DNA of 64,000 nucleotides from Escherichia coli (GTDB taxonomy: Bacteria; Pseudomonadota; Gammaproteobacteria; Enterobacterales; Enterobacteriaceae), in assembly GCF_003018255.1 (NCBI RefSeq), contig NZ_CP027440.1; one strand, 5' to 3'. A program made the translations under genes and the position numbers. Under the pieces are notes generated by a model, which worked only from the letters and a program-made list of their open reading frames with translations, had not been told where the DNA came from and did no database searches. Below, in pieces: positions 3,150-56,101 of the stretch (the first letter of the stretch is position 1; each line of letters starts with the position of its first letter).

Positions 3150-3168
3150 TAGATAAATTTTAGACAAC

Positions 3169-3247
3169 AAAAAACCCACCAACCTTGAACCGAAATGGCG
3201 GGGTTGATGGGCTCCACAAAATGGGGACATCAAAGAAAAGCAGTGGC
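3169..3247 (-). ncRNA. rybB: RybB small regulatory RNA (sigma-E dependent, Hfq-binding)
   Basis: Minus-strand sequence GCCACTGCTTTTCTTTGATGTCCCCATTTTGTGGAGCCCATCAACCCCGCCATTTCGGTTCAAGGTTGGTGGGTTTTTT matches the RybB sequence as I remember it, including 3' terminator hairpin and U-run; lies in the rcdA-ybjL spacer as in K-12. Confidence 0.85.
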
Positions 3248-5685: not shown

Positions 5686-5943
5686 TCAGGCGTCCAGATT
5701 CTCTTTCACCCATGCAGCAAAATCGGTATAGCCGCCGATATGTTGCTGATCGACAAAAATCTGCGGCACGGTTTCTACGGGTTTTCCTGCCTTTTGTTGT
5801 AGATCTTCTTTAGTGATCCCTTCCGCACGAATATCTACATACTGATACTGGAAATCATCGCGTTCATTGCTCAATTTCTCAGCCAGATCTTTTGCACGCA
5901 CACAGTAAGGGCAACCCGGACGACCAAAAATAACGGTTTGCAT
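5686..5943 (-). CDS. grxA: Glutaredoxin 1 (85 aa)
   Basis: ORF 5686..5958 trimmed to MQTVIFGRPGCPYC...; CPYC active site visible. Confidence 0.9.
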   Translation of the reverse strand: MQTVIFGRPGCPYCVRAKDLAEKLSNERDDFQYQYVDIRAEGITKEDLQQKAGKPVETVPQIFVDQQHIGGYTDFAAWVKENLDA

Positions 5944-6102
5944 TATTTCTCTCCTCATAGATTTATACCTGTAATGATCACGCTAAAATGTATTCGCTGA
6001 AAGTAGGTTTAACCTGTTGCATTAATTGCTAAAAGCTATAACTGTTAAACACAATACAGTGAAAAGTTTTAGACTGAAGGCTCACTTTGCAGAGGGAAGC
6101 GT

Positions 6103-6390
6103 ATGCGCGCGATCGGTAAATTGCCTAAAAGCGTGTTGATACTGGAATTTATCGGAATGATGTTGCTGGCGGTGGCGCTGCTGTCGGTAAGCGGCTCCCT
6201 GTCGCTGCCTGAGCCATTTTCTCGGCCAGAAGTGCAGATTCTGATGATTTTTCTCGGTGTTTTGCTCATGCTTCCCGCTGCGGTGGTGGTTATTCTTCAG
6301 GTGGCAAAACGTCTTGCCCCACAGCTGATGAACCGTCCACCGCAATATTCACGTTCAGAAAGAGAAAAAGATAATGACGCCAACCATTGA
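6103..6390 (+). CDS. ybjC: Small membrane protein YbjC (95 aa), first gene of ybjC-nfsA-rimK-ybjN cluster
   Basis: ORF 6103..6390; two hydrophobic segments; 17-nt overlap with nfsA start. Confidence 0.7.
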   Translation: MRAIGKLPKSVLILEFIGMMLLAVALLSVSGSLSLPEPFSRPEVQILMIFLGVLLMLPAAVVVILQVAKRLAPQLMNRPPQYSRSEREKDNDANH

Positions 6391-7096
6391 ACTTATTTGT
6401 GGCCATCGCTCCATTCGCCATTTCACTGATGAACCCATTTCCGAAGCGCAGCGTGAGGCGATTATTAACAGCGCCCGTGCGACGTCCAGTTCCAGTTTTT
6501 TGCAGTGCAGTAGCATTATTCGCATTACCGACAAAGCGTTACGTGATGAACTGGTGACGCTGACCGGCGGGCAAAAACACGTAGCGCAAGCGGCGGAGTT
6601 CTGGGTGTTCTGTGCCGACTTTAACCGCCATTTACAGATCTGTCCGGATGCACAACTTGGCCTGGCGGAACAACTGTTGCTCGGTGTCGTTGATACGGCA
6701 ATGATGGCGCAGAATGCATTAACCGCAGCGGAATCGCTGGGATTGGGCGGGGTATATATCGGCGGCCTGCGCAATAATATTGAAGCGGTGACGGAGCTGC
6801 TGAAATTACCGCAGCATGTTCTGCCGCTGTTTGGGCTGTGCCTTGGCTGGCCTGCGGATAATCCGGATCTTAAGCCGCGTTTACCGGCCTCCATTTTGGT
6901 GCATGAAAACAACTATCAACCGCTGGATAAAGACGCACTGGCGCAGTATGACGAACAACTGGCGGAATATTACCTCACCCGTGGCAGCAATAATCGCCGG
7001 GATACCTGGAGCGATCATATCCGCCGAACAATCATTAAAGAAAGCCGCCCATTTATACTGGATTATTTGCACAAACAGGGTTGGGCGACGCGCTAA
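6374..7096 (+). CDS. nfsA: Oxygen-insensitive NADPH nitroreductase NfsA (240 aa)
   Basis: ORF 6374..7096; translation MTPTIELICGHRSIRHFTDEPISEAQREAII recognised as NfsA. Confidence 0.9.
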   Translation: MTPTIELICGHRSIRHFTDEPISEAQREAIINSARATSSSSFLQCSSIIRITDKALRDELVTLTGGQKHVAQAAEFWVFCADFNRHLQICPDAQLGLAEQLLLGVVDTAMMAQNALTAAESLGLGGVYIGGLRNNIEAVTELLKLPQHVLPLFGLCLGWPADNPDLKPRLPASILVHENNYQPLDKDALAQYDEQLAEYYLTRGSNNRRDTWSDHIRRTIIKESRPFILDYLHKQGWATR

Positions 7097-28912: not shown

Positions 28913-29812
28913 TTATGCAGAGAAAAAGGCGATGAGAATCGGCACTAACAGACTAAGAATAAAACCGTGAACAATCGCCGCCGGGACCATATCCAGCCCG
29001 CCTGTACGTTGAAGAACGGGCAGGGTGAAATCCATCGACGTCGCACCGCATAAGCCCAGTGCAGTAGAGCGGCTACGGCGAATCAGCCCAGGGATTAACA
29101 TAATAGCAATCAGCTCACGGGCCAGATCATTAAAAAACGCCGCGCTCCCGATTACCGGACCAAAAGATTCGGTCAATAAAATACCGGAAAGAGAATACCA
29201 GCCGAAACCGGAGGCCATTGCCAGCGCGGTATTGATGGGAAGATCAAGAATAAAGGCGTTAATTAAACCACCAATTAATGAACTGGCAACCACCACCACG
29301 GCGACAATCATTCCCCGGCGATTAAGGACAATCTGCTTTAAGGTCATGCCATTATTGCGCAACTGAATACCGACGAGGAAAAGTAGCAGAATTAAGGTGT
29401 ATTCACTGGCTTCGGTCGCGTGTTGTAAGAAAGCCAGTCCACTCAGACCAATGGCAAAACCAATCACTACTACGCCGCACAGTTTTAGCGACTCCAGCGC
29501 CATCGCAATACGCGACGGGAGTTTTTCTTGATGATGGTGGTTGCGCCATGGCAGGCCGCGCTCCAGCCACATCAGGGCGGCAATATTACACAGTAAAATA
29601 ACGGTAATACTGACGGCAGAATAATGCAGAATTGCCAACAAGTTACTGGCGAGGTTATCGAGAAACGCCAGACTGATACCCATAAAAAAGAGAATAAGGT
29701 AAACCATCCAACTTAATAGCTGATTAATAACTCTTAATGCAGCTTTTTGGCGAAGCGGAATGAGGTAACCCACAATCAGGGGAACCAGAATGATTAACAG
29801 CCCAGAAAACAT
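28913..29812 (-). CDS. lysO: L-lysine exporter LysO (YbjE), 299 aa
   Basis: ORF 28913..29857 trimmed to MFSGLLIILV; multi-span membrane protein. Confidence 0.8.
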   Translation of the reverse strand: MFSGLLIILVPLIVGYLIPLRQKAALRVINQLLSWMVYLILFFMGISLAFLDNLASNLLAILHYSAVSITVILLCNIAALMWLERGLPWRNHHHQEKLPSRIAMALESLKLCGVVVIGFAIGLSGLAFLQHATEASEYTLILLLFLVGIQLRNNGMTLKQIVLNRRGMIVAVVVVASSLIGGLINAFILDLPINTALAMASGFGWYSLSGILLTESFGPVIGSAAFFNDLARELIAIMLIPGLIRRSRSTALGLCGATSMDFTLPVLQRTGGLDMVPAAIVHGFILSLLVPILIAFFSA

Positions 29813-40321: not shown

Positions 40322-40560
40322 TCTAATTGTTAGGTAGGTTGGTGAAGTCCGTAATCTCGAAAGAGGTTACGGACTTTTTGTTTATGGGGTGGAGGAGGTT
40401 CTGACCCTTTTTTTGATGATGATGGTAATTTGTTGATAATTAGTGCTGCGGGAAGGTAAGGATAAAAAAGGGTGGTAGCAGGAAAATGAGATGGTTTTGC
40501 TTTATTAACAACGGGCTAGACGTGTAGTATTTGAGTTCACTGCCGTACAGGCAGATAAAA

Positions 40561-40964
40561 TGCGAAAAAAAGCTCGTACTTTCGTACGAGCTCTTCTTTG
40601 AATATGGCGGTGAGGGGGGGATTGACTCGCTTCGCTCGCCCTGCGGGCAGCCCACTCACTGTGTTCGTGGTCTGTCCAACTGGCTGCGCCAGTTGTCGAA
40701 CCCCGGTCGGGGCTTCTCATCCCCCCTGGAGTGCAATATGCGAAAAAAAAGCTCGCACTTTCGTACGAGCTCTTCTTTGAATATGGCGGTGAGGGGGGGG
40801 ATTGACTCGCTTCGCTCGCCCTGCGGGCAGCCCACTCACTGTGTTCGTGGTCTGTCCAACTGGCTGCGCCAGTTGTCGAACCCCGGTCGGGGCTTCTCAT
40901 CCCCCCTGGAGTGCAATATGCGAAAAAAAAAGCTCGCACTTTCGTACGAGCTCTTCTTTGAATA
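40561..40964. repeat. Tandem array (~2.25 copies, period 178-180 bp) adjoining serW; each unit contains the 3'-terminal ~19 nt of tRNA-Ser plus the serW terminator hairpin and a ~115-bp GC-rich structured segment
   Basis: Unit starts at 40561, 40739 and 40919 (TGCGAAAAAAAGCTCG..., near-identical copies); TGGCGGTGAGGGGGGGATT (reverse complement of tRNA 3' end) recurs at ~40605, ~40785 and 40965. Confidence 0.85.
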
Positions 40965-41052
40965 TGGCGGTGAGGGGGGGATTCGAACCCCCGATACGTT
41001 GCCGTATACACACTTTCCAGGCGTGCTCCTTCAGCCACTCGGACACCTCACC
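40965..41052 (-). tRNA. serW: tRNA-Ser (anticodon GGA), 88 nt, encoded CCA end
   Basis: Minus strand reads GGTGAGGTGTCCGAGTGGCTGAAGGAGCACGCCTGGAAAGTGTGTATACGGCAACGTATCGGGGGTTCGAATCCCCCCCTCACCGCCA; long variable arm typical of tRNA-Ser; followed by hairpin + T9 terminator. Confidence 0.9.
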
Positions 41053-41095
41053 AAATTGTTTTGCTACCAAACCTCATGGGTGGCAACGGGGCGCT

Positions 41096-41124
41096 ACTAT
41101 AGGGAGTTGGAGTAAAACGGTCAA
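41096..41124 (-). promoter_or_regulatory. Sigma-70 promoter of serW (-35 TTGACC, 17-bp spacer, -10 TATAGT)
   Basis: Read on minus strand ~40-70 nt upstream of mature tRNA 5' end. Confidence 0.6.
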
Positions 41125-41305
41125 GAAGAATTTTAATGATAATTATTGTTTGCTCATACTGTAAACAAGTTGTGCAGTATATCTACATCGAGACAAGTTA
41201 TGGACTTATACTTCCAAAGTACTTCATACATATCACAAAATAAAAAGGCCGGCTAAACCGACCTTTTACTCGTTCTTTCTCTTCGCCCATCAGGCGGTAA
41301 AACAA

Positions 41306-55863: not shown

Positions 55864-55883
55864 TACCCAATTTTTCTGAATCT

Positions 55884-55909
55884 AAAAAGCGCCTGCGGGC
55901 GCTTTTTTT
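55884..55909 (+). terminator. Intrinsic terminator of serS (AAAAAGCGCCTGCGGGCGCTTTTTTTG)
   Basis: GC hairpin followed by T7 run. Confidence 0.8.
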
Positions 55910-56101
55910 GTCTCCCTTTGATACCGAACAATAATTACTCCTCACTTACACGTAATACTACTTTCGAGTGAAAATCTACCTATCTCTTTGATTTTCAAAT
56001 TATTCGATGTATACAAGCCTATATAGCGAACTGCTATAGAAATAATTACACAATACGGTTTGTTACTGGAATCAATCGTGAGCAAGCTTGAGTGAGCCAT
56101 T

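Follow-up and report, generated by a model that had tools for sequence, protein, structure and literature searches.

The repeat array beside serW of Escherichia coli as a probable pair of tandem RtT-class tRNA-linked repeats

The repeated units downstream of tyrT in Escherichia coli were reportedly described by Egan and Landy in 1978, and the rtT RNA is said to have been described by Bosl and Kersten in 1991. At tyrT, it is one repeat unit that yields rtT RNA. The family of tRNA-linked repeats (TLRs) was first seen at this locus in 1978 (Stenum et al. 2021, PMC8144298) and, in the catalogue of Rudd (1999) as far as it is summarized in the same source, comprises 22 copies at ten loci of strain K-12, with one to five copies per locus. 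According to that source, a TLR lies downstream of a tRNA or rRNA gene and its last 18-19 bp are identical to the 3' end of that gene (PMC8144298). The authors describe TLRs as elements without known function, and the only phenotype reported for rtT RNA, a starvation phenotype, was later retracted (PMC8144298).

The TLRs of rRNA operons lie between terminators T1 and T2 and are transcribed when polymerase reads through T1, where 87% of transcripts stop; an RNase E site 3 nt after the 5S rRNA forms their 5' end, and their 3' end falls 3 nt after the repeated 5S end (PMC8144298). The other 19 TLRs of K-12, which are linked to tRNAs, have scores as CsrA binders below 0.01 (PMC8144298). The sole function that has been put forward for the rrn TLRs is therefore probably not shared by the tRNA TLRs. 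A tRNA trailer, 3'ETS-leuZ, is described as acting as a small-RNA sponge (Lalaouna et al. 2015, as cited in PMC8144298).

We analyzed a window of E. coli DNA (64,000 nucleotides from contig NZ_CP027440.1, assembly GCF_003018255.1) in which an earlier note, made from the sequence alone, had pointed to an array of tandem repeats between clpA and serW. With a probability of roughly 85%, this array consists of two tandem RtT-class TLRs at serW, with units that would be transcribed by read-through, processed and turned over as proposed below.

The array at serW and its family

The tRNA-Ser(GGA) gene serW, the sole tRNA gene that ARAGORN found in the whole window, is followed on the minus strand by two full units (181 and 179 nt) and by a third copy of the trailer and terminator. 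The substructures are given here in the direction of transcription of the tRNA.

41096-41124, minus strand: promoter-like site for serW, TTGACC-17 nt-TATAGT (consensus match).
40965-41052, minus strand: serW, tRNA-Ser(GGA) (ARAGORN; Rfam tRNA model, 53.8 bits).
40784-40964, minus strand: unit A, 181 nt, from CCA end to next CCA end.
40923-40964, minus strand: trailer and intrinsic terminator T1, GAGCTCGTACGAAAGTGCGAGC then T9, first part of unit A (from the sequence; the equivalent in unit B folds as predicted).
40804-40922, minus strand: core of unit A (Rfam RtT model, 41.4 bits over 40784-40920; covariation in the Ser-type alignment A1).
40784-40803, minus strand: copy of the tRNA-Ser 3' end closing unit A, AATCCCCCCCCTCACCGCCA, with one extra C; holds a 14-bp attachment (att) core.
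40605-40783, minus strand: unit B, 179 nt.
40743-40783, minus strand: second trailer and terminator copy, T2 (T8), first part of unit B.
40624-40742, minus strand: core of unit B, identical to that of unit A (Rfam RtT model, 45.1 bits over 40605-40741).
40605-40623, minus strand: copy of the last 19 nt of tRNA-Ser closing unit B; holds the 14-bp att core.
40560-40604, minus strand: third trailer and terminator copy, T3 (perfect stem, T7), plus CGCAT (terminator scan; comparison with the K-12 locus).
40535-40562, plus strand: degenerate type I-F (CRISPR4) repeat, GTTCACTGCCGTACAGGCAGATAAAATG, at the outer border of the array and outside the repeat unit (Rfam CRISPR-DR4 model).

Tandem Repeats Finder places a single array at 40560-40983, with a period of 180, 2.4 copies, 97% matches and a score of 816; it reaches 19 nt into serW, to 40983. 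The tandem periodicity of about 180 bp that had been claimed earlier is confirmed, and the claimed unit starts at 40561, 40739 and 40919 agree with ours within 1-2 nt. Each unit begins with the serW trailer and its intrinsic terminator (TATTCAAAGAAGAGCTCGTACGAAAGTGCGAGC then T8-9), continues with a core of about 119 nt and closes with the last 19 nt of tRNA-Ser, which are AATCCCCCCCTCACCGCCA in unit B and carry the extra C in unit A. The sole differences between units A and B are a T run of 9 versus 8 and a C run of 8 versus 7. In the core of unit A, segment S1 (GGGGGGAT) is followed by GAGAAG, S2 (CCCC), GACC, S3 (GGGGTTCGA) and hairpins P3 to P6, in that order. The terminator scan places T3 at 40598-40565, within a trailer and terminator copy that occupies 40604-40565 and is followed by CGCAT at 40564-40560. 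T2 is predicted to fold as a 16-bp hairpin followed by U8, and T1 has the same stem followed by T9; T1, T2 and T3 all combine a G+C-rich hairpin with a T run, as intrinsic terminators do. On either side of each core stands a 66-bp repeat, which combines tRNA end, trailer and terminator. The description given in the earlier note, including the terminator, the internal hairpins and the re-creation of the tRNA-Ser 3' end in each unit, proved correct wherever we checked it.

On the tRNA strand, the promoter-like site at 41096-41124 is the one closest to serW; a second lies farther upstream, at 41136-41165, and the consensus scan of this strand found no promoter-like site inside the array. Toward clpA, the array passes directly into the lone degenerate CRISPR repeat, the single CRISPR-DR4 match in the window, which at 29.7 bits falls short of the gathering score of 35. 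The CRISPR-III locus of E. coli is known to occupy the clpA-infA interval, and a short remnant of it is kept in strains without cas-F genes (PMC3903273). At the same place K-12 has two CRISPR repeats and one spacer, which adjoin the serW terminator directly and therefore leave no repeat unit at K-12 serW. The stretch 40560-40604 of the window corresponds to the one that adjoins the tRNA directly in K-12, and the window differs from K-12 by a clean gain of two units. Strain 20Ec-P-124 carries two units at serW together with two CRISPR repeats and one spacer.

The Rfam model RF00391 (RtT), with a gathering score of 45, matches both units over their full length, unit B at 45.1 bits and unit A, below this threshold, at 41.4 bits; within the match, the one extra C is the sole difference between them. 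All three sequence features of TLRs are found: on the minus strand the first base of unit A directly follows the CCA of serW, the units end in the 18-19 bp of the 3' end of the upstream gene, and two full units plus one partial unit fall within the one to five recorded per locus. Furthermore, the NCBI annotation pipeline places an 'RtT sRNA' between clpA and serW in other E. coli. We regard the assignment of the serW units to the tRNA-linked repeats of the RtT class as nearly certain. The resemblance to the 178-bp repeats of tyrT that was suspected earlier is true homology, as the match of the RtT model to both units indicates. The array is already known in kind, since its family is described, modelled in Rfam and annotated by the pipeline at the same locus. 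To call it the main unexplained structure of the window was therefore an overstatement, except with regard to function, where the statement holds.

A unit beside serX, which the earlier note had proposed to look for, is indeed found in K-12, where serX, the second gene for this tRNA, is followed by four copies with a 181-bp period, annotated as 'RtT sRNA' by the NCBI pipeline. When they are aligned with the units of the window over 181-183 positions, 169 are identical, or about 93%. Units are near-identical within an array and arrays differ by about 7%.

The core is present in 3679 of 5426 complete E. coli genomes. In 1031 genomes it has at least 95% identity to the core of the window, and in 2503 the best copy has 90-95% identity; judging by sequence, we take the first class as the serW type and the second as the K-12-like serX type. 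At least 80% of the segment 40400-41200 is covered in 930 of the 5426 genomes, which implies at least one unit at serW. Overall, units would be present at serW in roughly 17-19% of complete E. coli genomes (930-1031 of 5426). By direct inspection, K-12 has no unit at serW, ST70 and E1648 have one, and the window and 20Ec-P-124 have two, so that the variation in copy number anticipated earlier does exist between strains. The serW array is dispensable, because most E. coli have no units there. Note that one further serX locus was seen without any units, an observation that is silent on islands at serW.

Relatives in other species were sought by scanning one genome per species for GATGAGAANCNNNGANNNNNGTTCGA, which gave at least 120 loci. 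The pattern fixed GTTCGA and GATGAGAA and therefore misses divergent units, while the T-stem positions were left free (N). Among the matches listed, the first unit motif lies 61-66 nt after the tRNA and on the same strand at enterobacterial tRNA-Ser and tRNA-Tyr loci of many genera. Units also follow tRNA-Tyr in Marinobacterium, tRNA-Asp in Kangiella, tRNA-Arg in Thiohalobacter and tRNA-Ser(CGA) in Stenotrophomonas. The loci of Kangiella and Marinobacterium run from the tRNA through a terminator and the core to a copied tRNA 3' end and a further terminator; the tRNA-Arg locus of Thiohalobacter has the same order, with a first hairpin that has no T run. The rrnB T1-T2 spacer follows the same plan, with the 5S 3' end replacing the tRNA end. 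It is the enterobacterial tyrT units that are the odd ones, because they have no intervening terminator. Matches in Microbacterium, Mycobacterium, Hyphomicrobium and other organisms outside the Gammaproteobacteria had no upstream tRNA in the stretch fetched and were taken as chance.

Conserved fold and matching to the upstream tRNA

Among the matches listed, 35 distinct Ser-type units from many genera (alignment A1) keep a six-helix structure, in which 94.0% of cells are standard pairs. Fourteen pairs are changed on both sides in these units, compared with 5.0 +/- 1.3 in shuffles, and none of 500 shuffles reaches 14, a contrast that is inflated by the kinship of the 35 sequences. When pairing partners were slid by 1-3 columns, pairing fell to 32-54%, a control that favors the six-helix structure because the structure was derived from the same sequences. 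The earlier note had proposed that the GC-rich segment be examined for covariance, and it is in this segment that a conserved fold with compensatory changes appears.

The double changes occur mostly in helices P3 and P4, and those in P3, P4 and P6 are hard to explain without selection on pairing. The closing helix, helix 1, is paired in 88% of cases, has two pairs changed on both sides and is also recovered in the single-sequence fold. Here the 5' G-rich segment pairs with the tRNA-derived ATCC... segment, as in RtT, and the copy of the tRNA end provides one strand of the helix. The predicted fold of unit B has an energy of -77.1 kcal/mol, compared with -55.9 +/- 4.5 for shuffles (z-score of -4.75). 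Note that the six-helix structure was written by hand; the RNAalifold consensus, affected by the misalignment of three divergent units, lacked helix P3, and it also placed one closing pair out of register. In the paired columns there are 12 G-U pairs versus 23 A-C mismatches, which is compatible with folding of either strand and at the RNA or the DNA level.

A likeness to the hammerhead ribozyme was considered and rejected: GAUGAG, a stem and CGA are alike, but GAAA is missing and the base after CGA varies. A search of the array against the ribozyme families of Rfam gave no match at E-values up to 1.

Four segments of the unit relate to the T-arm of the upstream tRNA. S1 is complementary to S4 and S2 to S3; S3 copies the 5' strand of the T-stem and the T-loop up to A58, and S4 (AATCCCCCCC...CCA) corresponds to the remainder of the tRNA from the T-loop onward. 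The matching to the T-stem follows the identity of the tRNA, as the following counts among the matches listed indicate; they use S1 and S3, since the pairing register of Tyr-type units differs at S2.

tRNA-Ser (T-stem GGGGG): S1 matches in 67 of 68 units, S3 in 65 of 68.
Enterobacterial tRNA-Tyr (T-stem GAAGG): S1 matches in 54 of 55 units, S3 in 53 of 55.
Marinobacterium tRNA-Tyr (T-stem GGTGG): S1 matches in 4 of 5 units, S3 in 5 of 5.

At one Escherichia whittamii locus (L102) the tRNA reads CCGGGG...CCCCGCC and the units carry GGCGGGGAT and GCCCGGACCCGGG; as read from these sequences, the change is compensated on both partners. Since the T-stem positions were free in the search pattern, the matching was not built in by the search. 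The TLR definition in the available part of PMC8144298 gives the 3' identity of 18-19 bp only and makes no mention there of internal T-stem matching. It is possible, though doubtful enough that we propose it tentatively, that TLR cores across the Gammaproteobacteria are one class of structured RNA, in which the closing helix and one internal hairpin are adjusted to the T-stem of the stable RNA that precedes them (here tRNA-Ser, tRNA-Tyr, tRNA-Asp and tRNA-Arg) and the fold presents a tRNA-like 3' end after read-through. If true, this would imply that the cores have a role under selection, such as one in 3' processing or as a report of how much polymerase escapes the first terminator.

Transcription, turnover and alternative readings

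The way in which serW units would be transcribed and processed can be proposed by analogy with the rrn TLRs (RrA, RrB and RrF) and with rtT RNA, and we find the resulting scheme somewhat probable. Transcripts of serW would start at the promoter-like site at 41124-41096 and most would end at T1, so that units would be transcribed only via read-through of the preceding terminator. Read-through transcripts would include unit A and stop at T2, or continue through unit B to T3. The repeated tRNA 3' end and trailer would then direct the same cleavage and trimming as in tRNA maturation. Since the same AU-rich UAUUCAAAG follows each CCA, the cleavages of tRNA 3'-end maturation would release each unit. 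The released product would be a structured RNA of about 180 nt that ends in CCA, with a single-stranded CUCACCGCCA tail. Given the strong terminator before every core, serW unit RNA may be very scarce. With regard to turnover, the number of units may rise and fall through unequal recombination or slippage between the 66-bp stretches on either side of each core, and the near-identity of units within arrays together with the divergence of about 7% between arrays fits unequal recombination between these repeats.

That same pattern is one of concerted evolution, and it is also what would be seen if the array were neutral or selfish repeated DNA that persists and changes in number by recombination alone, with hairpins that matter at most at the DNA level and no role as RNA. 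We judge this account unlikely. It is compatible with the fact that roughly four in five E. coli have no units at serW, with the terminator that stands ahead of each core, with the counts of G-U pairs and A-C mismatches (12 versus 23), which fit folding of either strand, and with the description of tRNA TLRs as having no known function (PMC8144298). However, the compensatory changes in six helices across many genera imply selection on the fold, and the orientation of the units and their spacing of 61-66 nt from the tRNA at enterobacterial tRNA-Ser and tRNA-Tyr loci fit co-transcription. Moreover, rtT RNA and RrB are detectable processed RNAs.

Two further readings start from the fact that serW and serX are real sites of island integration. 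Islands OI-43 and OI-48 of strain EDL933 are flanked by perfect 14-bp repeats, TGGCGGTGAGGGGG, which are the last 14 bp of serW and serX (PMC3064760). In the window this 14-mer occurs exactly three times, at 40605, 40784 and 40965, that is, in the tRNA and in each unit, and in none of 100 shuffles. The units could consequently be imagined as additional attachment sites, which would offer the integrase spare targets and spare the tRNA, or as units that the integrase reshuffles: the integrase of OI-43 and OI-48 uses this core, and each of its three exact copies is followed by the same trailer. This reading is quite improbable, given that at Sakai serX, the one junction examined, it is the copy in the tRNA that was used, with no units present, and that TLRs also follow 5S rRNA and further tRNAs.

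We find it very improbable that the array is, as the earlier note had suggested, a scar of integration and excision, in which a P4-family integrase, acting on an island once present at serW, would have left the copies of the tRNA end behind as att sites. The presence of three copies of the att core of OI-43 and OI-48 supplies the direct repeats that such a scar should have, but the DNA between them is not derived from an island. It consists of trailer, terminator and TLR core only, and no integrase gene or island remnant was found near the array in the window, which agrees with the earlier statement that no mobile element is present now. The structured core between the copies is instead common to tRNA-Tyr, tRNA-Asp, tRNA-Arg and 5S loci of Gammaproteobacteria. 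Real junctions look different. In Sakai, the 86-kb island SpLE1 directly adjoins serX, with the tRNA followed by island DNA on one side and, at the far end, island DNA followed by CCCCCTCACCGCCA and then by the normal serX trailer and terminator. Island DNA therefore stands directly against a bare 14-bp repeat, which indicates that integration duplicates 14 bp and makes no core. The duplicated stretch at serW is 66 bp, includes a chromosomal terminator and extends far beyond the length of the att core. The comparison with island attL and attR sites that the earlier note had proposed thus goes against its own reading, since the junctions of Sakai SpLE1 and of EDL933 are bare 14-bp repeats unlike the array. 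In the P4-family sites of OI-43, OI-48, SpLE1 and SRL-PAI, 14 bp of the tRNA 3' end are repeated, as they are here; their 14-bp repeats, however, flank tens of kb, whereas the 66-bp repeats of the serW array flank a conserved core of 114 nt.

Finally, a gene for a Tpr-like small basic protein, beginning at the ATG within the conserved GGATGAGAAG where K-12 tpr starts in the tyrT units, is hardly credible, because the frame, although open through the whole unit in the window, does not stay in register beyond about 11 codons across the 35 Ser-type units in the matches listed and meets early stops in several, including K-12 serX, while insertions and deletions of 1-2 nt fall in hairpin loops and substitutions preserve pairs; the reading frame is not conserved among homologues and the array is, as stated earlier, not coding.

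We therefore return to the reading of the array as tandem RtT-class TLRs. The compensatory changes in the fold and the tracking of the T-stem argue for selection on the family and against its being junk. Our analysis removes the false lead of an island scar and identifies serW as a TLR locus absent from K-12, whose natural alleles with zero, one and two units provide near-isogenic material for the study of TLR function, to which the tracking of the T-stem by the core may also contribute. Its value as a discovery is small, given a repeat family known since 1978, catalogued in K-12 in 1999, modelled in Rfam and annotated at serW.

Comparison with known systems

The processing proposed for serW units has a parallel in 3'ETS-leuZ, an RNA that RNase E releases from the 3' trailer of a tRNA transcript (Lalaouna et al. 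2015, again as cited in PMC8144298). Its sequence is unrelated to that of the serW units, it is unrepeated and it contains no copy of the tRNA end.

The RNAs RrA, RrB and RrF of rrnA, rrnB and rrnD are closer. Like the serW units, they lie between two terminators and end in a copy of the 3' end of the upstream stable RNA, and they share the core motif, a GTTGC hairpin, GGCCCGGAGGGTG and a further hairpin. The order of terminator, core, tRNA end and terminator at serW is thus one held in common with the well-known rrnB T1-T2 spacer. These RNAs differ in that they follow 5S rRNA, are single-copy and bind Hfq and CsrA (PMC8144298).

The rtT/RttR repeats of tyrT-tyrV (RF00391) are likewise tandem, with units of about 178 bp, and have a homologous core with GATGAGAA, GGTTCGA, CCCG-NA-GGGCG and GAGTNAATCC. 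Their T-stem sequences are those of tRNA-Tyr, and the tRNA end leads to the core with no intrinsic terminator in between. The Ser units barely reach the threshold of the Rfam RtT model and do not keep the tpr reading frame.

The TLRs of K-12 serX lie in the ghrA-ycdU interval (clpA-infA in the window), in four copies versus two, and have diverged by about 7%. They follow the same tRNA-Ser(GGA) sequence and are built on the same plan as the units of serW: trailer, terminator, core and the 19-nt end of the tRNA.

Surroundings of the array

Four features of the window were recorded outside the repeat units:

40413-40440, plus strand: promoter-like site (TTGATG, 16 nt, GATAAT) between clpA and the CRISPR4 repeat
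40535-40562, plus strand: single degenerate type I-F CRISPR4 repeat, adjoining the array
3166-3244, minus strand: RybB small RNA (Rfam, 104 bits)
55877-56011, minus strand: STnc130 small RNA (Rfam, 140 bits)

At the place of the CRISPR4 repeat, both K-12 and 20Ec-P-124 carry two repeats and one 32-nt spacer, which differs between these genomes. The window repeat starts as the first K-12 repeat does and ends as the second does, and thus looks, from its sequence, as if recombination between two repeats had produced it with loss of the spacer. The promoter-like site is directed at this repeat and the array, and its position might be that expected of a remnant of the CRISPR4 leader. If the site were active, RNA antisense to the repeat units would result. 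Besides serW and the array, RybB and STnc130 were the only Rfam matches over threshold in the window, and both are ordinary.

Traces at serX and on a plasmid

At serX, the second gene for the same tRNA-Ser, the first ~20 nt of the unit core (CGTATATTGCACACACCGGG) are kept past the last terminator (comparison loci L132, 1750-1820, and L003, 2700-2745). This stub accompanies the four units of K-12 and is present in Sakai, beyond the SpLE1 island, where there are no units; the zero-unit serX allele therefore still has a piece of core. On the 105-kb plasmid NZ_AP027855.1 (database match H30), 97 bp at 29534-29630, annotated as 'tRNA-OTHER', are 94.8% identical to the 3' half of the tRNA together with the serW terminator. 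An element targeting serW or serX may have this segment as its attachment site.

Unusual units in other Enterobacteriaceae

Some units after tRNA-Ser in Enterobacter, Citrobacter and Pluralibacter (L089, L090, L121, L025) contain an additional insert of ~75 nt, CAAAAATGCC.GGAGC.TTTTTGAACAACGC...GGCCCCGAAGGGGCGAGGCCCAGGGATGGGCCGAGT. Because this insert repeats the motif CCCGAAGGGGCGAG, these units look like composites, judging by sequence. Several Enterobacter and Pseudenterobacter units (L030, L034, L094, L105, L106, L114, L119) end in AATCCCCCCCGG[T/A/C]GC... and not in a tRNA 3' end, most of them sharing the continuation ...CAGCTCGGTGCGGCC.GAGCCCCTCACCCT; this ending may mark either an alternative terminus of the array or the point where another element joins it.

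Possible relation to sX4, and the rrnB terminator spacer

The Rfam model of sX4, a Xanthomonas small RNA, weakly matches serW and the start of unit A (40895-41071, minus strand; 33.5 bits versus a gathering score of 70). The model seems to depict a tRNA-Ser followed by the start of a tRNA-linked repeat, GGGGGGUGAGA, and in Stenotrophomonas such a repeat lies downstream of tRNA-Ser(CGA) (L115, about 5900-6400). For these two reasons, sX4 may be a tRNA-linked repeat region.

A further relative lies in K-12, and many cloning vectors also contain it:

L127 207-372: rrnB T1-T2 terminator spacer, downstream of the 5S rRNA gene rrfB

This spacer is itself a tRNA-linked repeat. It has the core motif of the serW and tyrT units, consisting of a GTTGC hairpin, GGCCCGGAGGGTG and a further hairpin, and its terminal copy is of the 5S 3' end.
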